Shown here: piece after piece, positions 3,004 to 54,015 of the stretch
Numbering within the stretch: the stretch's first letter is position 1
How the letters are laid out: each line of letters opens with the position of its first letter
Virus record (IMG/VR): IMGVR_UViG_3300026268_000003
Span: 1-55,635 of that record
DNA from: a virus
Lineage: Duplodnaviria > Caudoviricetes
Direction: 5' to 3' (one strand)
Length of the DNA: 55,635 bases
The notes under the pieces: model-generated
Databases searched by the model: none
What the model was told of the DNA's origin: nothing
Seen by the model: only the letters and a program-made list of their open reading frames with translations
Made by a program: the position numbers and the translations under genes

Positions 3004-3189
3004 ATGGAGATTATCGGTATGAAGTGTAAATACTCATTTACAATAGAAGATAGACTAATGGATTGGTTTAGATTATACGTTAGAGAAGAAAGTACAACTA
3101 TGAGTGCTGTACTTAATCAACATATATTAACTTTGAAAAGAAATAAAGAAGGATATACTAAAACTAATAATAAATTAAAAGTTAGTTAA
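3004..3189 (+). CDS. Small ribbon-helix-helix-like DNA-binding protein
   Basis: KYSFTIEDRLMDWFRLYVREESTTMSAVLNQHI fits the RHH strand-helix-helix pattern; fills the gap between two minus-strand genes. Start may be the ATG at 3019. Confidence 0.5.
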   Translation: MEIIGMKCKYSFTIEDRLMDWFRLYVREESTTMSAVLNQHILTLKRNKEGYTKTNNKLKVS

Positions 3190-6100
3190 AAGTTATCTTA
3201 CTAAAACCTTCTTCTTTTTTAAGTTCTAATAAAGTATCAACGGCATCTCTCATGCCCTCAATGTGTGATACAATCATAGTAAATTGAAATTGTGATTTCA
3301 AATATTGAAATAAATTATAAACAGAATTTAAATTATCGGAATCCATATTACCAAATCCCTCGTCAATAGCAAGAAAATTAGTACTTGGTAAATTACAAAC
3401 ATTAATCAAACCAACACGTATAGCTAAAGAAGAAATGAATTTTTCCATTCCACTTGTCAATTCAAGAGGCCAAATTCTATTATCATCATATACAATATAA
3501 CAATTAATATTCTTACCATCCATTTCCAACATTACAGAAAATTCTACTATTTGAGCTAATATCTCATTTACAGCTCCTTCTACAGTAGGAATAGCTTTTG
3601 ATATTAATTCATATGGAACACCATCACGTTTAACAGCGTTCAAATAAAACTCATAAGCTTTATATTTAATTTCTAACTCTTCTACTTCTTTAATTGTTGA
3701 TAATATATTTTTCTTATTATTTTCAGCTACCTTAACATTACCATGTACAATTTTAATATCATTTTCTATATTATCAATTAGACCAGATAAATTAACCATA
3801 GAATCTTTAAGTTCTACTATATCTTCTTCTAATTCTTTATTAAAAATAACATCTTCTTCTTGTTTATAATAATTTGTAATGTCTTGTTCAACAGAACTTA
3901 TTCTTTCAATAATATTTTCTTTTTTCTCTGTTAATAATATTAATTGACTATCTATTTTATTTTTTAATACCTCAACATCATTTAATTTTTGTCTGATATC
4001 ATCATATTGTATTTTATCATCTTTAACATATACAAGTGATTTTATAATACCAACAATTCTATCATATTCTTTAACATGATTGTTAGCTATTTCTTTATCT
4101 TTTTCTAATAACTCTTTTGTATTTATAGCATCAAGTGTAAATGGATTACTCATACAAAAATCACAATCTTCATCCCATTCCAATCCACCCAATTTTTGTA
4201 TCTTATCAAGTTTATTTTGTACTTGAATTTTTAACTTATCAAGTTCAATTTTCAAGGTATTTTTCTTCTCTTCATATTTCTCTAATTCATCATATTTAGA
4301 ATCAATATCTACATCATTATATTTATTATGTTTTTCTAACAAATTATTCTCTTTTAAAGAAACATCCTTTTCGTGTGATTGACAAAAACCTAATTTTTCA
4401 TCTATATCTGCTAATGTTGAGTTTAAATTATCTTTTTTAGTTTGTATTGAATCTAAATCTGTTATAGATTCGTCAACATTCTTTAATTTCTTTGTAGTTT
4501 CTATAACATCTGTATTTAATTGTTGATATTCATCCAACCATTCTTCTTTTTGTTTTGTTAACTTATCATATTCTATAACATATGAATTTAAATTATTTTG
4601 TGTATCTGTTAATTCAAAATCATAATCTCTTTGTTGAAACCTTCTTAGTATTGCAGAAACATCTGATATCTCTTCATTGGCTTTTTTCCACAATTCATCA
4701 AAAATACCTATACCAATAAACTTAGATAATAAATCCTTTCGTTCTCTTTGAGTCTTGTCTATAAAAACAGTATTATTATTTTGTAAAGATAGTGCTGTTA
4801 AAACAAAATCTTCATAAGAACCTATAACACTTCTAATATTTACATTAGTTGTTCTACGTTGGTCACCATTTAATGAAATTGTTTCACCAGTTTCATCAAT
4901 CATCCAAAAATTAACATCTACTTTAACATGACCATTACTTAACTTCTTAGCTTTTCTTTCTATATAATAATCTATATCACTTATTTCAAAATTAACCTTA
5001 CAATAAAAATTATTTTTCCTATTGTTTAGAATATTTTCAGCTTTAAACGCTCTCGATGATGTATCATATAAACAAAACGATAAAACATCCAATAAAGCTG
5101 ACTTACCACTTGCGTTCGGTGAAAAGAGTCCAACTATTCCATCAAGTTTTGTGAAATCTACCACATTATCTTCACCATAAGAAAACATATTATCAAAAGT
5201 CATTGATTTTAATTTCCATAAAATATTTCTTGGATATTCATTATGAAAAAACGTTGAATTTAATTCTTCATTTATTTTTTTAATTTCAAGTAAAGTATCT
5301 TCATCTATTGCATAGTTTTTTTCAAGATGTTCACTAATCAATTTATATTGATGATTAGAATCAGTAATATCACCTATCTCTATCTTTGAACCATCAATGT
5401 CTTTTCTATCAAAACCATCTGTTTTAGTTACTATTACTTCTTTTATCCCATATTTACTTCGTATTACTGCTAAAACTTTCTTTAACTGTGATGGTTTAGT
5501 GTTTGTTATTCTAACCCTTAATCGAGATTTAGAAGGCATATCACTAACAACTGGTACTACACCATTATTTACATCCAAAGTATAATAACCATAATCATTC
5601 TGAATAGGTACATATGTAGATTTACGACTTGGTACATCCCACCTCAAGTAGCCGTGGTCTAATCCCTCGCCATGATTCTGTTGGACTAATGAACCACAAT
5701 AAGAAATAGTTTCTTCTTCATTAAGATGTTGTCTCTTATGTATATCACCCAATAATCCAAGGTCATATCCATCAAACTTATCTATATGTACATCAGAAGG
5801 TAACTTAAATCCCAAATCTGTTTCTGACTTGTCAACAGTACCATGAAATAGTACTATTTTAGTATCACCATCTACTTGGTCGGATGTTATAAAACTATCC
5901 TCTTTATCCCAAACATCCCATACTACAAACGATACATCAGCAAACTTATAAATCCCACTATCTTTAAAATAAAACAATCGTGGATGATTTAAATTTTCTA
6001 CAATAGGTGTTAAAACATCTAACCTTGAACGATTATTTAAGTTACAATCGTGATTTCCAGCTATTATTATCGTTGGAACTATATCTGCTAAATTTTTAAA

Positions 6101-6328
6101 TAACCTTGATAGTTGGTCAACCAATTCAGGTGACATTTCTGTTTTAGAATGAGCTATATCACCACCAATATATGCTACTGCATTATCTGGGTATTTCCTT
6201 ACTTCTTCATAAGTACGTTCAAATACCTCTTCGTATTCCTTATGTCTCTTCAGATTACGTATTTGTATATCTGAAATGTGGTGTATGTATTTTAACTTGT
6301 CAAATAATTGAATATCTTGTTTTATCAT
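3182..6328 (-). CDS. Mre11/SbcD nuclease fused to Rad50/SbcC ATPase (gp47-gp46-like)
   Basis: N-terminal metallophosphoesterase motifs (HISD, GGD, GNHD, FHG, GDIHKRQ); Walker A SPNASGKS; long coiled coil with CDFC zinc hook; signature LTSGME; Walker B AIDEGFG; H-loop VSH. Confidence 0.92.
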   Translation of the reverse strand: MIKQDIQLFDKLKYIHHISDIQIRNLKRHKEYEEVFERTYEEVRKYPDNAVAYIGGDIAHSKTEMSPELVDQLSRLFKNLADIVPTIIIAGNHDCNLNNRSRLDVLTPIVENLNHPRLFYFKDSGIYKFADVSFVVWDVWDKEDSFITSDQVDGDTKIVLFHGTVDKSETDLGFKLPSDVHIDKFDGYDLGLLGDIHKRQHLNEEETISYCGSLVQQNHGEGLDHGYLRWDVPSRKSTYVPIQNDYGYYTLDVNNGVVPVVSDMPSKSRLRVRITNTKPSQLKKVLAVIRSKYGIKEVIVTKTDGFDRKDIDGSKIEIGDITDSNHQYKLISEHLEKNYAIDEDTLLEIKKINEELNSTFFHNEYPRNILWKLKSMTFDNMFSYGEDNVVDFTKLDGIVGLFSPNASGKSALLDVLSFCLYDTSSRAFKAENILNNRKNNFYCKVNFEISDIDYYIERKAKKLSNGHVKVDVNFWMIDETGETISLNGDQRRTTNVNIRSVIGSYEDFVLTALSLQNNNTVFIDKTQRERKDLLSKFIGIGIFDELWKKANEEISDVSAILRRFQQRDYDFELTDTQNNLNSYVIEYDKLTKQKEEWLDEYQQLNTDVIETTKKLKNVDESITDLDSIQTKKDNLNSTLADIDEKLGFCQSHEKDVSLKENNLLEKHNKYNDVDIDSKYDELEKYEEKKNTLKIELDKLKIQVQNKLDKIQKLGGLEWDEDCDFCMSNPFTLDAINTKELLEKDKEIANNHVKEYDRIVGIIKSLVYVKDDKIQYDDIRQKLNDVEVLKNKIDSQLILLTEKKENIIERISSVEQDITNYYKQEEDVIFNKELEEDIVELKDSMVNLSGLIDNIENDIKIVHGNVKVAENNKKNILSTIKEVEELEIKYKAYEFYLNAVKRDGVPYELISKAIPTVEGAVNEILAQIVEFSVMLEMDGKNINCYIVYDDNRIWPLELTSGMEKFISSLAIRVGLINVCNLPSTNFLAIDEGFGNMDSDNLNSVYNLFQYLKSQFQFTMIVSHIEGMRDAVDTLLELKKEEGFSKITFN

Positions 6329-9052: not shown

Positions 9053-9376
9053 TTATCTTGGTGGATTAGAATCCCACGGCCCCCAATGTTGGTTCTTTAA
9101 CATTTTAATACCAGCTTCTTCTCCAGTATATTTATAAATTTTATGTCCTTTAACAGGAATTCCTCCAACTTTATAGTATAATTTTTTAGACATATGAATT
9201 TCTCTTCCATTACTATAGTCAAATACTACGGAGCCTAATTCAACCCACGCATGACCAAATGGTTTACCATCAGTTTTTAAAATACCTACTCCGTGGCATA
9301 AAGTCCATCTTTCATCGTCCATATGACTAATAGCAAGTCTACCAGCCGCTCTATAACAATCTCCACTGGCCGCCAT
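9053..9376 (-). CDS. Small papain/transglutaminase-like Cys-His-Asp protein
   Basis: GDCY...GHAWVE...VFD triad spacing. Confidence 0.55.
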   Translation of the reverse strand: MAASGDCYRAAGRLAISHMDDERWTLCHGVGILKTDGKPFGHAWVELGSVVFDYSNGREIHMSKKLYYKVGGIPVKGHKIYKYTGEEAGIKMLKNQHWGPWDSNPPR

Positions 9377-9377
9377 T

Positions 9378-9782
9378 TTATTTTGTTACCCTCTTTACCT
9401 TTTCAATTGAACGACCAGCAAAATAAGCCGCATAAACAGTCATCAATAATGTCTGATAAACTGGAACATACGCCGCTCCTATTGTAAAGTCACCCAAATT
9501 TCCATCAAATACACTTAATATAACAAATACGGCTGTAAGAAAAATCAAAGTTAATGGTCTGATATTTTTACTCAACCAACTTCCATGTTTCATATCGGCT
9601 TCCCAACGAGCAGACACTTGAGCTTGTGCCGCTTGTTCAGCTGTTGCTAATATTTGTGTTATCTTTTGTTCTGCTTCGGCTCTTTCTTCACCTGATGTGT
9701 GTAAATTATCTAATACTCCACCAATATCTTTTATTACATCACCACCACTTAAAAACCCTGTAATTGCACTCATAACTCCCAT
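9378..9782 (-). CDS. Holin, 3TM / gene-transfer-agent holin family
   Basis: LDNLHTSGEER, RWEADM..SWLSKNIRP, hydrophobic helices and YFAGRSIEK, the pattern of the GTA_holin_3TM family. Confidence 0.8.
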   Translation of the reverse strand: MGVMSAITGFLSGGDVIKDIGGVLDNLHTSGEERAEAEQKITQILATAEQAAQAQVSARWEADMKHGSWLSKNIRPLTLIFLTAVFVILSVFDGNLGDFTIGAAYVPVYQTLLMTVYAAYFAGRSIEKVKRVTK

Positions 9783-9792
9783 AACTTATCTC

Positions 9793-10233
9793 CTAAAAAA
9801 CATCTTCGGCTAATACACCATCTATAGCAGATTTTATATCGCCATTATCTATATCCAACTCACCATCCATATCGCCTTTCCACACTTCAACCTTCTTACC
9901 ATTGTGGAATAACGCAACAGATGGATAGTTTCGTATTCGAAGTTTCTTGATTGCTTTCTTAACATTTGAATGATTAACTTCATAGATAATACACCCCTCA
10001 AAGCCTTTTATACCATCAAATAATTTAGAGTCAAGATTTTTCTTTTGATACGCCGCTGTAAATTTAATTAATACAAACCCCTTAGCTGTTTTTTTCTTAA
10101 AAGTATCATCTGTGATTTCTGGTTTCGTTGTAGGTGTTCGTTGTGCACTAACAAAATCTGTACATAATACAAACATAAGTCCTATTGCACATAAAACTTT
10201 AAATCCACGCCTAATTAATTGTATTCTATTCAT
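9793..10233 (-). CDS. Exported thioredoxin-fold protein lacking CXXC
   Basis: Signal-peptide-like N-terminus (…VSA|QR); VLIKFTAAYQ in place of VLVDFWAxWCxxC; IRNYPSVALFHNGKKV cis-Pro strand pair. Confidence 0.65.
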   Translation of the reverse strand: MNRIQLIRRGFKVLCAIGLMFVLCTDFVSAQRTPTTKPEITDDTFKKKTAKGFVLIKFTAAYQKKNLDSKLFDGIKGFEGCIIYEVNHSNVKKAIKKLRIRNYPSVALFHNGKKVEVWKGDMDGELDIDNGDIKSAIDGVLAEDVF

Positions 10234-10235
10234 AA

Positions 10236-10886
10236 CTATTTATCCCGTTTTCTCCGTTCAAGTGATTTTATATCATTTTGTAATTCTTTGATAACATCTT
10301 GAAGTTCTTCTATTTTTCCATAAGCCTCGTCCATTTCGTCCTGTAGACCTTCGACATTATCCTTATACTGTTCATAAGAACGAGGCCAGTTATATCCCTC
10401 TGGTCTTGATGGATACTCTCCTTCATATAATGATTTTAATGATGGGAGCTCTTTAGCTTCTTGTATGTCTGCCTGTAACATATACCACATACCAACCAAT
10501 GATGCAATTCCTGTGGCCGCACCAATCATTGTTTGTACTGATAAAGTGAACTTAGTACTTAGTACTGCTTCTTCACTTAATTCTTTTGGTTTGGACACTT
10601 TTTTCTCCTGTATAACTGGTTTCGGTTTACTCTTTGATTTTGAAATTTGTTTTTGTAATATTCTATCTCGTTTACTCTTTTCTACTTCGTCTGAAGCTTT
10701 ATTAGCTTGTTCCATCATAACTTCTGTTAAGTCTTCAACCGTAACATAACCCAATTCAACAAAGATTTCACCTAATTTTCTTTTATCACCTTGTGTTTGT
10801 ATCTGTACAGCTTTTGCAAGTTGTCGTTTTGTTATGATATCGGCGTCCATTAAAAGGTTGCCTAATCTTTCTCCATTCCGTGCCAT
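10236..10886 (-). CDS. MshEN-domain (c-di-GMP-binding type) membrane protein with C-terminal coiled coil
   Basis: Tandem motifs RLGNLLMDADIITKRQLAKAVQIQ and KLGEIFVELGYVTVEDLTEVMMEQ match MshEN RLGxxLxxxGxxxxxxLxxxLxxQ; TM MIGAATGIASLVGMWYML; heptad C-terminus. Confidence 0.75.
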   Translation of the reverse strand: MARNGERLGNLLMDADIITKRQLAKAVQIQTQGDKRKLGEIFVELGYVTVEDLTEVMMEQANKASDEVEKSKRDRILQKQISKSKSKPKPVIQEKKVSKPKELSEEAVLSTKFTLSVQTMIGAATGIASLVGMWYMLQADIQEAKELPSLKSLYEGEYPSRPEGYNWPRSYEQYKDNVEGLQDEMDEAYGKIEELQDVIKELQNDIKSLERRKRDK

Positions 10887-11437
10887 TATTCGCTCTCTTT
10901 AAATCGTACCTCGAACACATCGTGGTCATCAGTACCTTTATATTCTATTTGTGTTATGTCTGCCTCACCACCAAAGTGTTGAGCCACTCCCTTTAACATT
11001 CCAACTGCTAACGGAGCTAATCCATCTCTTTGTGATACATAGTGAACTTTAAAATGATTCTCACCGAGTTCTTCTATTTCAAATGCAGGTGGAACTAAAC
11101 TTGGTAACATTTGAGAAATTCTTACATGCATCTCATCTAATCCTGCCACAAAACTTTGAAAATCATTACCAAACGCTTCAAAGTACTCACCATACCCTTT
11201 TGGTGCAACATCGGTTGCCCAATAAACACCGAACATTTCTAATACATCTCCTGCAGGAATATCTAATGTTTCTGAAACTGCTCCTACTAATGAGAATGTT
11301 ACACTATCATCATAAGATTCTAAATCTCCATAAACATCTTTGTCTATACCAGATGCTACAAGAACTTGTTCCCAAACTTCTTCACCTGCTTCTCGTGTAA
11401 CTAAAGTTCTTATTGCTTTATTTATCATTCCATACAT
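10886..11437 (-). CDS. H-NOX (haem nitric-oxide/oxygen binding, HNOB) protein
   Basis: MYG N-terminus, FGxYW, proximal His104 (LDEMH), PPAF, Y133-x-S135-x-R137 haem-binding motif, GLAP...G, DHDVF; full-length stand-alone domain resembling Nostoc H-NOX and sGC beta1. Confidence 0.95.
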   Translation of the reverse strand: MYGMINKAIRTLVTREAGEEVWEQVLVASGIDKDVYGDLESYDDSVTFSLVGAVSETLDIPAGDVLEMFGVYWATDVAPKGYGEYFEAFGNDFQSFVAGLDEMHVRISQMLPSLVPPAFEIEELGENHFKVHYVSQRDGLAPLAVGMLKGVAQHFGGEADITQIEYKGTDDHDVFEVRFKESE

Positions 11438-11439
11438 TA

Positions 11440-11586
11440 TTATCTACCATATATATTTTTAATTGGATTATTTTTATTTTTCTCTAACCATTTTTTATGT
11501 TGACTAGCGGTTCGACCTTCCGTTGCCCACTTTTTATTTAACATCCGTCTTTTTCGTTTTCTATCTTTAGCTTTACTATTCGGCAT
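11440..11586 (-). CDS. 48-aa basic protein (MPNSKAKDRKRKRRMLNKKWATEGRT...)
   Basis: Below the ORF-track cut-off; overlaps the upstream stop and ends 2 nt before the H-NOX ATG. Confidence 0.6.
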   Translation of the reverse strand: MPNSKAKDRKRKRRMLNKKWATEGRTASQHKKWLEKNKNNPIKNIYGR

Positions 11587-12871
11587 TACTAAATCCTACA
11601 AATTGATAATTCAAACCAACTTTAAAATCATACGCTGGTCGTTCCCAGTAATATAAATAACGGCCTTCCGCAAAAAGTCCTAAATTTTCCTGTACTTTAA
11701 TTCCAAAAATTGCACCAAAATCATAATCATTCCAACTCATCCACATTGACTCCATATACATAAAATCAGAAGGTTCTTTACCTTCATCTACATGGTCTAT
11801 ATAAGAAGAGGCGTTGTGATATGAATATTTATCATGTCCATAATGATAAGGTAACCAATTACCCCACGCATGTATCCACCACCTATCTCCATAATGATAA
11901 TAATCAGTACCTATTACTAAAGATGTTTCTTTTTGATATCCTAAACCCTTTTTTATTCCATTCATGTATGATTCTAACAATCCTGGAAAATGATAAACAA
12001 AAAATTCTCTATCCGTCCATGCAATAATTTCTCCATCGGAAGTTTCCCACATATAATCATACCCAATAAATTCACCATCTCCATTAAAGAATGGGCCATC
12101 ACCAGGTACATCAATCCAAGTATCTGACTCTGCGTCGTAATATACTAAGTGACCTTCATGATATACATTATCTTCATCAACTATATACCATCTTTTATCA
12201 TCCATACCAAAAGCATCTTCGGCAAAATCCCACCAAGAACCTCTATACCAAGTTGTATCTAATATCATAGCATCAAATCCATATACAGGATGTTGTCTAT
12301 GTTTTGCACCAACACTAAATGTTATCTGATTACCTAAAAATTCTGGTGACCACTTTAATCTTAAATCACCTTGACCATAAGTTATTTCTTCTAAACCAAG
12401 TTCCGTCCAACCTAATTTAGCCATGAACCAATTACCAGTATATCTCAACCAATATTCTTGATTAAGATATTCATTTCCCCATTGACGACCTTCAGTCCAT
12501 TTTATTAAATATTCCCAACCTTTAACTGAACCAAATGTTGCATTTTCATTCGCGTTTTTTTCTGAACCATCGTACCAAGTTCCACCATTACCAGCATTCT
12601 TAACACCTCGTTTTGGTTCATAATTGAAACGACCAATTTTTCTCAATCCGAATGATTTTTGAAAATCAGCTTTTAATTCTCTTTCTTCCCTTTCAACTTC
12701 CAAGTCACCAGTATCCAATCCACCAACAATACTAAACCTATCCTCTTGATGTCGTGGTGCATTTAAACTAAAACTTGCATACGCAGTCGAGTACTTAAAA
12801 AAGTTTAGTATAATATCTTGACTAAACAAAGAAGTAGACAATAATAGTCCTATGAAAATGTTTTTTAACAT
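11576..12871 (-). CDS. Exported aromatic-rich protein, probable outer-membrane beta-barrel
   Basis: Signal peptide MLKNIFIGLLLSTSLFS|Q, many amphipathic W/Y/F strands, near-terminal DFKVGLNYQF beta-signal-like strand; GGGAG RBS. Confidence 0.55.
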   Translation of the reverse strand: MLKNIFIGLLLSTSLFSQDIILNFFKYSTAYASFSLNAPRHQEDRFSIVGGLDTGDLEVEREERELKADFQKSFGLRKIGRFNYEPKRGVKNAGNGGTWYDGSEKNANENATFGSVKGWEYLIKWTEGRQWGNEYLNQEYWLRYTGNWFMAKLGWTELGLEEITYGQGDLRLKWSPEFLGNQITFSVGAKHRQHPVYGFDAMILDTTWYRGSWWDFAEDAFGMDDKRWYIVDEDNVYHEGHLVYYDAESDTWIDVPGDGPFFNGDGEFIGYDYMWETSDGEIIAWTDREFFVYHFPGLLESYMNGIKKGLGYQKETSLVIGTDYYHYGDRWWIHAWGNWLPYHYGHDKYSYHNASSYIDHVDEGKEPSDFMYMESMWMSWNDYDFGAIFGIKVQENLGLFAEGRYLYYWERPAYDFKVGLNYQFVGFSNAE

Positions 12872-12933: not shown

Positions 12934-13968
12934 TTATACATCAAACCTAACGACAATTGAAAATGCTTCATCTTTATCACGTTTAATAGGTCTACCTAAC
13001 TTACCAATTGCTAAAAGGTCGTTGTGGTCATTATATAAACCAACTGTAGTTACATATGGCGAGAAATCTGAATGTGTTGTATGATTAATAGCGAATTCGG
13101 TAGCATTATAACTTGTTTTTACAGAACCACTTCCACCATCTGGATTATCACCAGGTGCAAATACCCTCCACGTGTCTGGTGAATTTGGAGCAACAGTTAT
13201 ACTACCACTTCTACCAGAAGTAGCACTAATATTAGTTGTTGTATTGAATTCTGTTTTACCAATATTACACATATACTCATGTTCATATATGGTATGACTA
13301 GCTTTAAAATCCAATTCCCAACCATCTGTACCATTTCCAAGTCCTACCTGACTATAAGAACCAGTATCTGTAATTGTAATGACCCCATGTTCATAAAAAA
13401 TATTACCTATTGCACTACCACTACCTTCTGCAGTTAAATTTGAACCATCCCAACTACTACTTTTAAATGCCGCGAAACTAGCAGAATAAGTATTGTCATA
13501 TAAATTCCCTTGACCATCATCATATATTGTATAAGTTACATCAGTGCTATCGTCTGTTAACTTAACACTCTTAGGTTTTATACCTTCACTATAAAATTTC
13601 TGGGGTATTGATATAACATTTACTCTATTATGTAAGTCTCTATAACATTTATTGGTATCTGTATTACCAAAACTATGAAATGGTTTATTACCATCTCTAT
13701 AATATAAGTGTCTCATAGACCAATAAGTTGGAATCTTATACCAAGTACCAAGACTCCAAGGGTCTTTACCTAAACTAGCAGAAATAGTGGAATAATCTCC
13801 AAATGAATGTGATTCCGCAGTTGATGTGTTGAAGTTGTGCCAACTTCCAGATAACCCTTCTATCGCGTAAACACCACTACCGCTATCAACATTTGTGAAT
13901 GTGAAATCTTTAAATGTTTTAAAGGGTGATATTAACGCGTCTTGTGGGTCGAGATTTTTAAATATCAT
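12934..13968 (-). CDS. Virion structural protein (tail collar/baseplate-associated)
   Basis: C-terminal YVTTVGLYNDHNDLLAIGKLGRPIK shared with the neighbouring gene; resembles tail-collar fibre domains. Confidence 0.55.
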   Translation of the reverse strand: MIFKNLDPQDALISPFKTFKDFTFTNVDSGSGVYAIEGLSGSWHNFNTSTAESHSFGDYSTISASLGKDPWSLGTWYKIPTYWSMRHLYYRDGNKPFHSFGNTDTNKCYRDLHNRVNVISIPQKFYSEGIKPKSVKLTDDSTDVTYTIYDDGQGNLYDNTYSASFAAFKSSSWDGSNLTAEGSGSAIGNIFYEHGVITITDTGSYSQVGLGNGTDGWELDFKASHTIYEHEYMCNIGKTEFNTTTNISATSGRSGSITVAPNSPDTWRVFAPGDNPDGGSGSVKTSYNATEFAINHTTHSDFSPYVTTVGLYNDHNDLLAIGKLGRPIKRDKDEAFSIVVRFDV

Positions 13969-13988: not shown

Positions 13989-15164
13989 CTAAAAGTCTAA
14001 TTTGACTTTGATAATAGCTTCCCTAGCGTAAGATTTCAATAAAGGTTTACTTAGTTTAGCAACAGCTAATAGTTCATTTTCATCGTTGTACATCCCAACA
14101 GTAGTAATATACGTCTTTGGGTCTTTATGAAACGATGGATTATTAAACGAACCATCAGATTGTGTAAAGAATGTAGGATTATTACTAAAATTATATCTCT
14201 TATTCCTTACTCTACAAAAATAATGTGTGGAAGAAATGTTTTCCTCTCTACGAGCTTGAAATTTACCACCACCAACAAATGCGTTATAGAACTTCTGGAT
14301 GTTTTCTTCAGCACCTGTGATTCCTCTATCAGTACCAAATGAACCAGAACCATCAGCTTGAGCGGCACTTATAATCCAAATACCTAAATCTGGATAAAAC
14401 AACCCAAGTCCACCATTTGGTTGACTTGTTGCCACTATTGATGTTTCCGCTACACCATTAGTTAATGAACCAGAAACAATGTTGAATACTCTTCCACCCT
14501 TATTTACTGATGGGTCAACTGTTGCACCACTATCATCAATTAGTTTCCAATAGGTTTGGCCAGTTGTATCTACACCACTACTACCACTTAACCAAAGTTC
14601 CCAATTACCTGGGTCAACTTTTTCTCTAATTCGTGCTCTATTAGCAGAAATTATATAAACATCATCTGAATCAACACTACCAGCCATTGTAAATTTAGTA
14701 TCATTTGGTGTCAATAAAATATTTCTAAATTGTGAATACATAGCTTTTGAAGCGGCATTATCACCACCGGTAGCCTTTGAACCACTACCAGCATAATGAC
14801 CATACGCAATACCAAATTGAACTTGAGCTGTATCATCACTTGGGTCTACTGCATAAATATCATTATAATACTCACCACTTGACGCACTTTGTGCCGAAGA
14901 AGTGAAATATGTAGCTAAACTACCAGTATTTCCAGACCACAATGGAGACGAAACCACCGCCTTCATATTTTCAAGTATATCATTATCTGGGTCAAAGACC
15001 GTATAGATACTTGGTTTTGTTATTGGGGCGGGTCTACCAATACTCTTACCAAGAAGTTTAGATGCAACTGATAAACCACCAATTCCTTTACCAGACTTTA
15101 CAGCATCTTCTATCTGTATAATTTCTTGTGTGGATAATCCCTTTTTCTTTTTTCCTTTAGCCAT
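13989..15164 (-). CDS. Virion structural protein, paralogue of 12934..13968
   Basis: C-terminal YITTVGMYNDENELLAVAKLSKPL; S/G-rich. Confidence 0.55.
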   Translation of the reverse strand: MAKGKKKKGLSTQEIIQIEDAVKSGKGIGGLSVASKLLGKSIGRPAPITKPSIYTVFDPDNDILENMKAVVSSPLWSGNTGSLATYFTSSAQSASSGEYYNDIYAVDPSDDTAQVQFGIAYGHYAGSGSKATGGDNAASKAMYSQFRNILLTPNDTKFTMAGSVDSDDVYIISANRARIREKVDPGNWELWLSGSSGVDTTGQTYWKLIDDSGATVDPSVNKGGRVFNIVSGSLTNGVAETSIVATSQPNGGLGLFYPDLGIWIISAAQADGSGSFGTDRGITGAEENIQKFYNAFVGGGKFQARREENISSTHYFCRVRNKRYNFSNNPTFFTQSDGSFNNPSFHKDPKTYITTVGMYNDENELLAVAKLSKPLLKSYAREAIIKVKLDF

Positions 15165-39267: not shown

Positions 39268-40467
39268 TCAGTTCTTTAATAAATGTGGACTAGCTTCTAT
39301 TTGTCCAGCTCTTGACACTTCCACAAATTCTACTTTAGAATGATACTCACTAATATTGCTAGCACCGACATAGCTACATGAACTATTGATGCCATCTCGA
39401 ATATCATGTAAGATTCTTTTGACTTTCCCTTTGTATGGAATAATTTTGTGATTTCCTTCGACATTTTTATCGTTTCCTTTGAAATCCCTTGACGCGGAAC
39501 CCCTATACTTTTTAAATAATTGTTCGTTTGGCCATTCACCTACTTTTTCAATTTCGCCTGGACTTTCTTTCGTACCAGATAAAAGGGAGCCCAACATAAT
39601 CGTATCAGCCCCGCAACCAAGTCCTTTACAGACATCACCAATAGTACGAACACCACCATCAGCAATAACGGGAGTATTATAATTATCAGCAACGGCGACA
39701 GCATCAAGGAGAGCACTAACTTGAGGCACACCCACGCCTGTTCTAATTCTTGTTTCACATAATGAACCATTTCCCACTCCAATTCTAACCGAGTCCGCTC
39801 CTTGTTCACATAAAAATCGTACTCCTTCTGCCGTGGCCACTGACCCCGCGACGACTTCAACATTATTTTCTCCTTTAAGTTTACTTATAGCGTTACTCAT
39901 TAATTTATGATGACCATGTGCTATATCAATAAATAGTACATTACATCCATTATTTACTAATTCTTTTGCGCGTTCTAAATAATCACCTTTAACTCCAACA
40001 GCCGCACACAATGGTCGTTTAGACCAAATTTTTTCATCATGAATCATAGAATCTGCGAAATAAAATCTTTCTTTTAAATCTTTCCAATCTGATTTAGTAG
40101 GTGGACTATTCCAATGTCTTATACTACTATCCCATTCTTTCCATTCCTTTTCAATAGTTCTTTCTTCACCATCTGTAATGCCTGGTACTCCATCAAAATA
40201 TCTATCCCATTCATAATGTAATGATTTCATCATACGAGCGTGTTTCTCAATACTCTGAAATCTATGTATAACACCAACTCCACCCCAATCCATCATTTCT
40301 TTTGCCATATCTAATTCAGTTACGGTATCCATTGGTGAAGCAACTATTGGAATGGTTAATATAGTATTCTTGGTAAACCTTGTAGTCAAATCTACATCAT
40401 CACGAGATTCTAATTCAGAATACTTAGGAACTATATTTACATCATCATATGTTAATGTTTTTCTCAT
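39268..40467 (-). CDS. IMP dehydrogenase / GMP reductase family enzyme without CBS domains
   Basis: [42 protein letters not shown] (catalytic Cys), [19 protein letters not shown]. Confidence 0.9.
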
Positions 40468-43471: not shown

Positions 43472-43484
43472 TTATTACTCCTTG

Positions 43485-43558
43485 AGTGCCGGGTGAGATT
43501 CGAACTCACGTACAATGGATTTGCAATCCACCCCATTAGACCACTCTGGCACCGACAC
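43485..43558 (-). tRNA. tRNA-Cys (GCA)
   Basis: Acceptor GTGTCGG/CCGGCAC, anticodon arm GTGGA-TTGCAAA-TCCAT, T arm GTGAG-TTCGAAT-CTCAC, U discriminator; CCA not encoded. Confidence 0.9.
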
Positions 43559-45187: not shown

Positions 45188-45296
45188 CGCGTCACTCCTA
45201 TTTGTTATGTTGGATTCATTTATAATAGGTTGAACCCTTTGACCTATTGTGAGATATATTACAGAATATGTAATGGTCTGATATCTCCTTTCATTG

Positions 45297-45369
45297 TGGA
45301 GCTGACAGGACTCGAACCTGCGACTTCCTCCGTGCAAGGGAGGCACTCTCCCAACTGAGTTACAGCCCC
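45297..45369 (-). tRNA. tRNA-Ala (TGC)
   Basis: GGGGCTG/CAGCTCC acceptor with G3:U70, CCTCC-CTTGCAC-GGAGG anticodon arm, GCAGG-TTCGAGT-CCTGT T arm; CCA not encoded. Confidence 0.95.
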
Positions 45370-53832: not shown

Positions 53833-54015
53833 TTATGATTTGCTTTCCTCAACTGAAACTTTCCTATATTCGGTAACTAACTTCTTAACTTCACCAATAG
53901 CTTTCCGAGCTCTTGTTCCAGCAGATTTGTTTCCCTTATCCGCAAACTTTCTATGATTTTCTTGAAACTCTTCCCATAGGTCGTTAAGGGATTCGTATAA
54001 TTCTGCACTTGTCAT
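53833..54015 (-). CDS. Histone H1-like Hc1-family protein
   Basis: KGNKSAGTRARKA..E.KKL..EYRK.S motif. Confidence 0.75.
   Translation of the reverse strand: MTSAELYESLNDLWEEFQENHRKFADKGNKSAGTRARKAIGEVKKLVTEYRKVSVEESKS

Follow-up and report, generated by a model that had tools for sequence, protein, structure and literature searches.

H-NOX proteins are the nitric oxide (NO) receptors of animals and many bacteria, and NO is a signal with links to the nitrogen cycle, to stress in algae and to the dispersal of biofilms. In bacterial H-NOX operons (HnoX-HnoK type, GGDEF/EAL) a stand-alone H-NOX lies upstream of, and is coupled to, a presumed effector, and the c-di-GMP elements of such operons are enzymes that make or break c-di-GMP. 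The O2-binding H-NOX of Caldanaerobacter has a distal hydrogen-bond triad, Trp9/Asn74/Tyr140 (described in part of PMC7356049), the NO kinetics of H-NOX proteins are not set by Tyr140 alone (as stated in a portion of PMC10411614), and the H-NOX of Vibrio cholerae has a haem-free thiol/zinc redox switch (PMC7108781). The MshEN domain has been conceived as a paired 24-residue motif, and in E. coli NfrB it is joined to a membrane protein, as in the phage protein described below (both from part of PMC8669469). In the literature searched, no description was found of a virus-encoded H-NOX or of its pairing with a protein of this type.

The locus compared here with these systems lies in the window, that is, the whole stretch of DNA analysed (55,635 nucleotides; positions 1 to 55,635 of IMG/VR virus record IMGVR_UViG_3300026268_000003). 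Its H-NOX resembles Nostoc Alr2278 and the H-NOX domain of sGC beta1 in fold, length, proximal His, YxSxR motif, conserved Pro and Trp74-type distal residue, and it stands alone like bacterial H-NOX proteins. It differs from the Nostoc and sGC proteins in being virus-encoded and cysteine-free, and in having as its proposed partner a small membrane protein, designated g216, instead of an HNOBA kinase or cyclase. The gene order is that of the bacterial operons, with the H-NOX upstream of and coupled to a presumed effector, but g216 is without a kinase, phosphatase, cyclase or HNOBA domain, and the c-di-GMP element of the phage module appears to be of the receptor type. Like the ATPases MshE, PilB and PilF and like NfrB, g216 has two tandem 24-residue motifs with a conserved Leu-Gly; unlike them, it carries the ~55-aa motif pair alone, is bitopic and phage-encoded, has no ATPase or glycosyltransferase, and has a degenerate second motif. 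The parts of the module are as follows.

10886..11437, minus strand: H-NOX, stand-alone, 183 aa (ORF reading, Pfam, structural alignment, AlphaFold2 model)
10236..10886, minus strand: g216, bitopic membrane protein of 216 aa, proposed H-NOX partner (ORF reading, synteny, models)
10707..10868, minus strand: g216 residues 7-60, tandem pair of MshEN-type motifs, 24 residues per motif, both beginning [RK]-L-G (profile matches)
10632..10694, minus strand: g216 residues 65-85, basic helix, predicted H-NOX dock (co-occurrence, complex model)
10476..10550, minus strand: g216 putative transmembrane helix, about residues 113-137, N-in/C-out (charge distribution, direct reading)
10239..10475, minus strand: g216 periplasmic part and C-terminal coiled coil, the "core" (homologues, model)

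A full-length H-NOX gene in a myovirus fragment

The window contains baseplate genes of the gp25 and gp6 type, a holin, a primase and a fused SbcD-SbcC, and almost every gene is on one strand. The record was ~29% complete according to CheckV, and the window is estimated to be a fragment of a myovirus with a genome of about 175-190 kb. The preliminary description of this DNA had assigned the H-NOX to a phage, in agreement with the phage genes of the window and with the classification of the record as a virus in IMG/VR. Chimeric assembly, which the same description had raised as a concern, is excluded because 13 further contigs have H-NOX in the same place. The phage has two tRNAs (Cys, Ala) and an IMPDH-like gene; neither the tRNAs nor a search for homologues of that gene led to a named organism as host. 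The cultured phages nearest by the gp6-like baseplate protein were Microcystis phage Mel-JY01 (46%) and Flavobacterium phage vB_FspM_immuto (39%), relatives too distant for a host to be named from them.

The H-NOX ORF begins with ATG, is open throughout, and encodes 183 aa with no cysteine and, as read from the sequence, no signal peptide. Pfam HNOB (PF07700) matched residues 2-162, corresponding to profile positions 1-162 of 163 (E=5.3e-44; 150.5 bits, cut-off 25.5). The closest solved structure was the Nostoc Alr2278 H-NOX (2o09/4iae; E ~3e-44), which aligned end to end, with an identity of ~45% in the HMMER alignment (judged by eye) and 38% over the Foldseek structural alignment. The AlphaFold2 model (pLDDT 88.2, pTM 0.85) superimposed on the Nostoc structures (2o09/4iae) with a TM score of 0.93 and an rmsd of 1.5 A; for human sGC beta1 the TM score was ~0.90. 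These results confirm that the ORF at 10886-11437 is a full-length stand-alone H-NOX, and the earlier claim that it is intact holds.

Beyond residue 31, phage residue numbers are those of Nostoc minus 1. H104 aligned with Nostoc H105, the proximal haem-ligating His of helix F; P117, which adjoins P116, with P118, the conserved haem-distorting Pro; and Y133/S135/R137 with Y134/S136/R138 of the Y-x-S-x-R propionate-binding motif. H104 was kept in 18 of 18 aligned H-NOX sequences, Y133, R137, P116 and P117 were invariant in the alignment, and S135 was nearly so. All of the residues named in the preliminary description (His104, Pro117, Y133-S135-R137, Trp73 and Leu143) were found in the ORF. The phage protein is probably a working haem protein.

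The distal pocket is of the Nostoc and sGC type

The positions of the Caldanaerobacter triad are occupied by I9, W73 and L143 in the phage H-NOX, and thus the Trp9/Asn74/Tyr140 triad is missing. In the alignment W73 corresponds to Nostoc W74 and L143 to Nostoc M144; by way of Nostoc M144, L143 would correspond to Caldanaerobacter Tyr140. L143 is hydrophobic, as are Nostoc Met144 and sGC Ile145 at this position. The three residues bear out the Nostoc-type or sGC-type pocket that had been proposed, and the phage H-NOX is likely to be of the NO/CO-binding, O2-excluding type. Because the protein is without any cysteine, a haem-free thiol/zinc redox switch in the style of V. cholerae is impossible.

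H-NOX is coupled to g216, a small membrane protein

The H-NOX stop codon TAA and the g216 start codon ATG have one base in common (TAATG), an arrangement by which the two genes are, on the sequence, translationally coupled. g216 directly followed H-NOX in all 11 loci with downstream DNA and was found in all 13 H-NOX contigs that extend downstream. The H-NOX had been called an "orphan"; this label is wrong because the start of g216 overlaps the H-NOX stop and the partner, which carries an H-NOX-specific insert, is conserved and coupled in 13 of 13 contigs. No adjacent HNOBA, HisKA/HATPase_c, SpoIIE or GGDEF/EAL gene was present among the 70 ORFs of the window.

g216 had no match above threshold in Pfam or PHROGs, and its AlphaFold2 model was poor (pLDDT 60.5), which is too low for a fold search. 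A modeled helix at residues 105-145 covers the transmembrane stretch and is the best-conserved part of the family. The g216-type partner exists in core, +MshEN and +helix forms, and the core occurs alone in other phages, as proteins of 113-122 aa. Homologues of g216 were far more numerous than those of H-NOX (4334 versus 88 matches), one g216 relative lying on a 237-kb contig, and g216 was present without H-NOX in 12 contigs. Since g216 functions without H-NOX in these contigs, H-NOX is an add-on and not a core part.

A profile of the g216 head, built from 14 homologues, matched the PilB N-terminus (5zfr, 5.7e-13; 5tsg, 1.7e-11), 6f8l (2.1e-10), PilF and the MshE N-domain (5htl, 1.2e-6). The motifs run from R7 to Q30 and from K37 to Q60. 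G9 and G39 are invariant, with L8 and L38 almost as constant. The second motif is degenerate, with a variable position 37 and a non-conserved Q60. The viral clusters are labeled "GspE N-terminal domain-containing" in the ESM Atlas. T2SSE_N did not match the whole of g216 at E up to 10 or the head alone at E up to 1, and DUF4388 gave a Pfam match, below the cut-off, in 14 of 14 family members. Judged by its profile matches, the head is an MshEN-type motif pair resembling c-di-GMP receptors, and it probably binds c-di-GMP. A link of the phage module to c-di-GMP through this head is plausible.

H-NOX is predicted to dock on a basic helix of g216

Between the MshEN-type head and the membrane helix, g216 has an insert of roughly 25 aa that contains the basic helix. 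All 13 distinct contigs that have H-NOX also have the motif of this helix, against 0 of 12 contigs that lack H-NOX. In the g216 tree, which retained some columns of the insert, the H-NOX-positive rows formed two separate clades, and thus the co-occurrence represents only about two independent events.

A model of the H-NOX/g216 complex had an ipSAE of 0.68 (runs 0.68, 0.74 and 0.60), versus 0.00 for the best of three controls, a score that is the model's own confidence and that could be inflated if the pair resembles the way H-NOX meets the coiled coil in solved sGC structures. Of 157 solved complexes 116 reached the mark used for this score, as did 2 of 215 mismatched pairs, in a calibration that excludes custom alignments and riding haem. 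The partner had a pLDDT of 71-72, and at least 70% of contacts were common to the runs. The predicted interface joins g216 residues 65-85 with H-NOX residues 44-66, 137-145 and 162-168, a patch that takes in residues right behind the YxSxR propionate-binding motif. The co-occurrence and the complex model suggest that H-NOX docks physically on the basic helix of g216. A kinase-type docking helix was considered and rejected, as no similar motif was seen by eye in the N-termini of 21 cellular H-NOX partners.

The module sits among envelope and lysis genes

The genes on either side of the module are as follows.

9378..9782, minus strand: holin (phrog_3427, 1.2e-26; Pfam GTA_holin_3TM, under the cut-off)
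9793..10233, minus strand: thioredoxin-fold protein, secreted, without CxxC (Pfam Thioredoxin, 5.8e-6; sequence reading)
11440..11586, minus strand: very basic 48-aa peptide directly upstream of H-NOX, in a variable slot (ORF reading, synteny)
11576..12871, minus strand: g431, secreted, 431 aa, carrying a signal peptide, C-terminus aromatic (ORF reading, synteny)

The upstream border of the variable slot is g431, which had no family match in Pfam or PHROGs and which, by eye, looks like an outer-membrane protein. In 12 related contigs the slot holds other small genes or none. The thioredoxin-fold gene comes after g216-type genes in nearly all loci. Here the holin lies two genes downstream of the module, in the ~45-kb phages described below an endolysin (phrog_315, 6e-45) lies four small genes downstream, and in several relatives the holin and the g216-type gene are not neighbours. 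The module thus belongs to a cluster of genes for envelope and lysis functions. The single N-in/C-out membrane helix and periplasmic coiled coil of the g216 core fit the topology of a spanin or holin type; g216 did not match the lysis PHROGs, and an outer-membrane lipoprotein partner was also not found. Scans around the module gave no promoter signal (20 promoter-like sites versus 18.5 expected) and no terminator signal (1 terminator-like site versus 1.4 expected).

Distribution, phylogeny and selection

Thirteen further IMG/VR loci have H-NOX at 77-93% identity. The best 77 of 88 H-NOX protein clusters were 72-92% identical to the phage protein, and the next full-length matches were 40-46% identical. 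There was no match to H-NOX among 50,697 GenBank phage records, and no H-NOX fold among the BFVD viral models at E <= 0.001. According to completeness estimates the carriers are of two phage types, one of ~175-190 kb and one of ~45 kb. Among the ~68 window proteins, only H-NOX and g216 and, in one contig (L057), a nuclease had matches in the second lineage. The H-NOX/g216 module is therefore common to two unlike phage lineages. L057 is a 49-kb contig that has the module at 77% identity and was binned in an archaeal metagenome-assembled genome; the contig is read as misbinned phage DNA and not as a sign of an archaeal host.

The H-NOX frame was intact in L057 as well as in all 13 related loci from viruses. 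H-NOX is under purifying selection, with a dN/dS of 0.08-0.16 in five of six comparisons (those five having unsaturated dS), and in L002 and L003 H-NOX was 88-89% identical, versus 42-70% for flanking genes.

A phylogeny against cellular H-NOX proteins, one of the checks proposed in the preliminary description, placed all the viral sequences (15 of 94 rows) in a single clade (SH-aLRT 99) on a long stem of 1.52 changes per site. All of the cellular relatives found were at most 44% identical to the viral copies, within a sampling biased by a genome scan that relied on one peptide pattern and retained 80 of its 134 matches. The weak sister of the viral clade was a clade of 19 rows, chiefly Halieaceae and Cellvibrionaceae (SH-aLRT 82), a grouping too weak to name a recent cellular donor.

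H-NOX DNA was found in 14 sequencing runs from 11 studies, and its holders were labeled "marine metagenome". The run labels overall were "marine", "seawater" or "hydrothermal vent" metagenome, with vent and seawater rows making up small shares. Nothing in these labels suggests the low-oxygen, nitrogen-cycling habitat that had been proposed. Contigs from RNA libraries (X15, X17 and X18; three studies) matched parts of H-NOX at ~87-100% identity; these are not counted as transcription because the libraries may contain DNA and the contigs cannot show it.

A proposed gas-sensing module and its alternatives

On balance, we lean towards the reading that H-NOX and g216 form a phage module of two genes, in which H-NOX is the NO/CO-type sensor subunit and docks on g216. 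H-NOX made by the phage would be loaded with haem in the host cytoplasm and would sit on the basic helix at residues 65-85 of g216, between the MshEN-type head and the membrane helix. Gas on the haem would alter the seat of H-NOX on the helix and, with it, the action of g216 in the envelope. The output would most likely be an envelope event, for example the timing of lysis, because g216 is part of a cluster of envelope and lysis genes. Lysis timing as such is a guess from the gene neighbourhood, and a separate holin is already present.

T4 lysis inhibition, which involves holin T and two antiholins, RI in the periplasm and RIII in the cytoplasm, offers a possible analogy. g216 is similar to holin T in size and in having one membrane helix, N-in/C-out, a likeness of topology only; a small cytoplasmic H-NOX predicted on the cytoplasmic part of g216 would recall the T4 arrangement, as would the gene for a secreted protein that comes after g216. 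The T4 system differs in that there is no sequence or profile similarity and that the phage here has a separate holin gene, and the analogy is a hypothesis. A bolder version of the module, which we consider rather unlikely, is a gas checkpoint in which two inputs, NO by way of H-NOX and c-di-GMP by way of the MshEN head, would be joined at g216 in the inner membrane to gate the breach of the host envelope, resembling T4 lysis inhibition but driven by gas; the sensor and docking helix would form a cassette that passes from one phage to another, unrelated one and is able to attach to a pre-existing membrane protein.

It seems unlikely that H-NOX is instead, along the lines of the preliminary description, a free-standing NO sensor that rewires signalling in the host during infection by plugging into one of the host's own H-NOX-associated enzymes (a kinase, a phosphatase or a c-di-GMP enzyme). 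In this H-NOX subfamily, the cellular members do lie directly upstream of such enzymes: among the downstream ORFs of 25 of 53 candidates scanned, 18 were of the histidine-kinase type, three SpoIIE, one GGDEF-EAL, one STAS, one GAF/PAS (ending at the locus edge) and one DUF2961, and HNOBA was present in 16 of the 25. A phage-borne c-di-GMP enzyme or HNOBA partner was rejected, a GGDEF or HNOBA gene being present in 0 of 5 phage records, all fragments, which would leave room for a host partner. However, with at most 44% identity to cellular H-NOX and a long stem, the viral clade does not evidently mimic any particular host protein, and the conserved coupling to g216 with its H-NOX-specific helix points to a phage-encoded partner. 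Roles with a host enzyme and with g216 could coexist. Less probable still is a buffer without a signalling role, which would protect phage replication by soaking up NO or CO or by storing haem. H-NOX proteins of the NO type have a very high affinity for NO, and a stand-alone domain in a window without an enzymatic partner would suit such a role, but one molecule bound per protein makes a poor detoxifier, and buffering leaves unexplained the fixed place before g216, the one-base overlap, the co-occurring helix and the predicted interface.

A sensor of O2 or redox state, and not of NO, is very improbable given the lack of a distal Tyr/Asn/Trp triad and of any cysteine, even though the sequence gives no certain ligand selectivity and NO kinetics are not set by Tyr140 alone (PMC10411614). 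The proposal that H-NOX is a passenger, is decaying or is an artefact of assembly could draw on the variable slot that it occupies, but it is effectively refuted by the intact frames in all loci, the low dN/dS, the better conservation of H-NOX than of its flanks, and the recovery from marine DNA runs across studies.

Implications

Abundance in marine metagenomes, strong conservation and presence in two very different phage types indicate that the phage H-NOX is used and is not accidental cargo. Its constant pairing with a membrane protein that has gained a docking helix suggests that the virus reads a gas signal. In the preferred two-gene module, g216 would be a non-enzyme that gained a docking helix along with the sensor, and the pair may provide a compact, testable example of a new sensory input grafted onto an existing protein. 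The small size of the pair (183 aa and a cytoplasmic fragment of ~110 aa) should make expression and structural study easy, and would provide a direct route to the question of whether phages sense NO to time steps of infection.

Identity and distal pocket of the phage H-NOX

The preliminary description had reported an intact H-NOX, a haem gas-sensor domain, and this observation is confirmed. The gene and its neighborhood in the window are as follows.

Genes in and around the H-NOX region (coordinates, strand, product)
11576-12871, minus, g431, 431-aa protein with a signal peptide, no family match
10886-11437, minus, H-NOX, open frame with ATG start, 183 aa
10236-10886, minus, g216, adjoining H-NOX downstream
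9793-10233, minus, secreted thioredoxin-fold protein without CxxC, active site replaced (sequence read)
9053-9376, minus, 107-aa protein just after the holin, Cys...His pattern, weak Transglut_core3 match (E=0.022)

A scripted check found H104, P116, P117, Y133, S135, R137, L143, and W73 in the product, which has no cysteine. Nearly the entire Pfam HNOB model was covered (E=5.3e-44; 150.5 bits, cut-off 25.5 bits), and the nearest solved protein was Nostoc Alr2278 H-NOX (E ~3e-44; alignment of residues 1 to 182). After residue 31 the phage numbering is the Nostoc numbering minus 1: H104 aligns with H105, P117 with P118, Y133/S135/R137 with Y134/S136/R138, W73 with W74, and L143 with M144. An AlphaFold2 model from an alignment of 18 sequences (pLDDT 88.2) superimposed on Nostoc H-NOX with a TM of 0.93 (rmsd 1.5 Å) and on human sGC beta1 with a TM of ~0.90.

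One article (PMC7356049) describes a hydrogen-bond triad, Trp9/Asn74/Tyr140, in the O2-binding H-NOX of Caldanaerobacter and places Trp74 of Nostoc H-NOX at the pocket edge. Because the phage residues are I9, W73, and L143, the phage protein does not have this triad. From the Nostoc alignment and literature known to us, we take L143 to be the equivalent of Tyr140, as the preliminary description did.

Coupling of H-NOX to a membrane protein, g216

The description of the gene as an orphan did not hold. The last base of the H-NOX TAA is the first base of the g216 ATG (TAATG), and a g216 homologue lies directly downstream of H-NOX in all 11 related loci with downstream DNA, a count that leaves aside two contigs (L011 and L012) that stop within the H-NOX gene. 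Direct inspection of the sequence, together with a low-confidence model, divides g216 into a head of four cytoplasmic helices, a long helix extending as far as residue 85, a basic linker, a single transmembrane helix, and a periplasmic tail with a C-terminal coiled coil. No Pfam model matched g216 at threshold. A profile of the head (residues 1-62; 14 homologues) matched the N-termini of PilB (5zfr, 5.7e-13; 5tsg, 1.7e-11) and PilF and the MshE N-domain (5htl, 1.2e-6), all of which are MshEN-type domains; the ESM Atlas name for viral g216 clusters is 'GspE N-terminal domain-containing'. A further article (PMC8669469) states that MshEN-type domains bind c-di-GMP via two tandem 24-residue motifs. 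In g216 these are R7-Q30 and K37-Q60; their Leu-Gly pairs are conserved, and the second motif is partly degenerate.

Relatives of g216 (4334 matches at E ≤ 1e-3; 43 IMG/VR loci) far outnumber those of H-NOX and occur in three forms: a core of 113-122 aa (short tail, membrane helix, and periplasmic coiled coil), always followed by the thioredoxin-fold gene; a form of 189-197 aa, which is the core plus the MshEN-type head; and a form of 163-222 aa, with the head plus a basic helix of ~25 aa. The thioredoxin-fold gene follows g216-type genes in nearly all loci checked, including phages that have the core form only. In the window the basic helix includes EKSKRDRILQKQISKSK (residues 68-84). Every one of the 13 distinct contigs in which H-NOX lies upstream of g216 (the window, L001-L010, L013, and L057) has this helix motif, and none of the 12 contigs that have upstream DNA without H-NOX (L017, L018, and L020-L029) does; one contig without upstream DNA, L031, also has the helix. 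In the g216 tree the H-NOX-positive rows form two separate clades, and therefore the association of helix and H-NOX represents about two events rather than 13.

Where relatives lack H-NOX, the slot that separates g431 from g216 either is empty or encodes small membrane or secreted proteins. This slot is a hot spot (L016:2308-3446, L017:2548-3997, L018:3058-3997, and L021:3224-3997); depending on the relative, its products include small proteins that are secreted or resemble lipoproteins, a protein that spans the membrane several times, and one of 107-109 aa in which a single membrane helix is combined with a strongly basic tail. Across the related loci examined, g431, at the upstream edge of the slot, is 47-94% conserved, and the C-terminus of its relatives is aromatic (...NYQFVGF). 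The protein has the appearance of an outer-membrane protein, and its signal peptide gives a Bacteroidota-like impression.

Predicted H-NOX/g216 complex

H-NOX (18-row alignment) was folded with residues 1-110 of g216 (15-row alignment) and haem. The ipSAE, which is the model's own confidence, was 0.68 (0.68, 0.74, and 0.60 in three runs), compared to 0.00 for the best of three control pairs. The partner had a pLDDT of 71-72, and the three runs agreed on at least 70% of the contacts. In calibration the mark was reached by 116 of 157 solved complexes and 2 of 215 mismatched pairs, a calibration that custom alignments and haem fall outside. In the model, g216 makes its confident contacts through residues 65-85 rather than the MshEN head. 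The H-NOX side of the interface comprises residues 44-66, 137-145, and 162-168; in the AlphaFold2 model of H-NOX these correspond, in turn, to helix 44-58 with the first part of helix 62-89, to the loop that follows the YxSxR strand with the beginning of helix 141-154, and to a strand edge.

We know of no solved H-NOX complex of this kind, and the prediction might be biased by solved sGC structures, where a coiled coil is in contact with H-NOX. The strongest argument that H-NOX and g216 are a real pair is that the model docks H-NOX on the very segment of g216 whose presence goes with that of the H-NOX gene.

Phage setting and two phage types

The window spans an entire IMG/VR record with a GC content of 32% and a CheckV completeness of 29%, which corresponds to a genome of ~190 kb. 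Almost all of the 70 ORFs scanned are on the minus strand. The family scan identified gp25- and gp6-type baseplate proteins, a primase, a RusA/PDDEXK-type nuclease, a peptide deformylase, an Hsp20, and a CobS-like ATPase. Further features are given below.

Other features of the window (coordinates, strand, product)
3182-6328, minus, fused SbcD-SbcC, a single 1048-aa ORF (family scan)
39268-40467, minus, IMPDH/GMP-reductase-like gene (Pfam IMPDH, 1.7e-100)
43484-43558, minus, tRNA-Cys(GCA)
45296-45369, minus, tRNA-Ala(TGC)
53833-54015, minus, Hc1-type histone H1-like protein, 60 aa (Pfam Hc1, 1.7e-20)

In the fused ORF, an SbcD/Mre11-type phosphoesterase (residues 15-191) is linked to an SbcC/Rad50-type ATPase. 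Close relatives of the IMPDH/GMP-reductase-like gene number in the thousands on marine contigs; the enzyme works on guanine nucleotides, and the same phage has a c-di-GMP-receptor-like domain. Two adjacent structural-looking proteins (12934-13968 and 13989-15164, minus strand) have in common only a C-terminal module of ~49 aa (43% identity; E=9e-11).

An IMG/VR scan found the H-NOX at 13 loci (77-93% identity), which, together with the surrounding phage genes, indicates that the gene is truly phage-borne and not an accident of assembly. Of the ~68 window proteins compared, the second of the two H-NOX-positive g216 clades (L005-L010, L013, and L057; GC, 0.37-0.43) shares no more than H-NOX and g216, the latter over its N-terminal two-thirds, apart from one nuclease in L057. 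Its representative (31.8 kb; estimated completeness, 71%) suggests a genome of ~45 kb, compared to ~175-190 kb for the window lineage. From these gene comparisons, the H-NOX-g216 module crosses phage types. In the second lineage a tail-fibre gene and a lipoprotein lie upstream of the module. Downstream come four small proteins, most of them of membrane or coiled-coil type, followed by an endolysin (phrog_315, 6e-45). In the window the module is followed by the thioredoxin-fold protein and a holin (phrog_3427, 1.2e-26); the 107-aa protein after it is possibly a peptidase-type endolysin.

Relatives, selection, and origin

A protein search yielded 88 H-NOX clusters (E ≤ 1e-10), the best 77 of which, chiefly from short marine contigs, were 72-92% identical; the full-length matches after these were 40-46% identical. 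At least half of the region's sampled words were found in 14 marine DNA runs from 11 studies. When H-NOX was compared with six relatives, dN/dS was 0.08-0.16 in the comparisons whose dS was unsaturated. The dS of H-NOX against two related loci, L002 and L003, was 0.43-0.65, below the 0.86-1.22 of the flanking genes, a hint that phages have exchanged the gene.

Cellular relatives were sought with a single peptide pattern in one genome per prokaryotic species, and the best 80 of 134 were kept. One, on the 49-kb contig L057, was 77% identical to phage H-NOX; all others among these 80 were at most 44% identical. L057, which has both the H-NOX-g216 module and a nuclease of phage type, is binned in an archaeal MAG labelled Methanosarcinales; misbinning of a phage contig is the probable explanation. 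The phylogeny with cellular H-NOX that had been proposed (94 rows) placed the 15 viral-type rows, L057 included, in one clade (SH-aLRT 99) on a long stem (1.52 changes per site), weakly sister (SH-aLRT 82) to 19 rows, chiefly Halieaceae and Cellvibrionaceae. No recent cellular donor could be named from this tree and the best 80 of 134 relatives.

Cellular H-NOX partners and a possible mechanism

Every cellular relative recovered was a stand-alone protein of ~180-198 aa. Of 53 ORFs directly downstream of these genes, 25 were scanned.

Products directly downstream of cellular H-NOX (of 25)
Histidine-kinase type, 18
SpoIIE phosphatase, 3
GGDEF-EAL, 1
STAS, 1
GAF/PAS (cut at locus end), 1
DUF2961, 1

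HNOBA was present in 16 of the 25. No GGDEF or HNOBA gene was detected in five phage records (the window and four related ones, all fragments), and no g216-like helix was seen by eye in the N-termini of 21 cellular partners.

The H-NOX made by the phage would be a cytoplasmic haem protein with NO (or CO), and not O2, as its ligand, and it would sit on the g216 helix beside the membrane. Ligand binding would move the haem-propionate region and the distal subdomain, part of the predicted interface, and this shift would alter g216, to which the MshEN-type head may supply c-di-GMP input. Because the core form of g216 matches an inner-membrane spanin or a one-helix holin in topology, and because its neighbors in two phage types are envelope and lysis genes, our best guess for its output, a rather doubtful one, is control of lysis or another envelope step.

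No H-NOX or g216 match was found in 50,697 GenBank phage records, nor an H-NOX-fold match among BFVD viral models at E ≤ 0.001, and the parts of the literature available to us gave no published account of a virus-encoded H-NOX or a phage MshEN. Here a known sensor domain occurs in a virus, coupled to a partner of a new kind.
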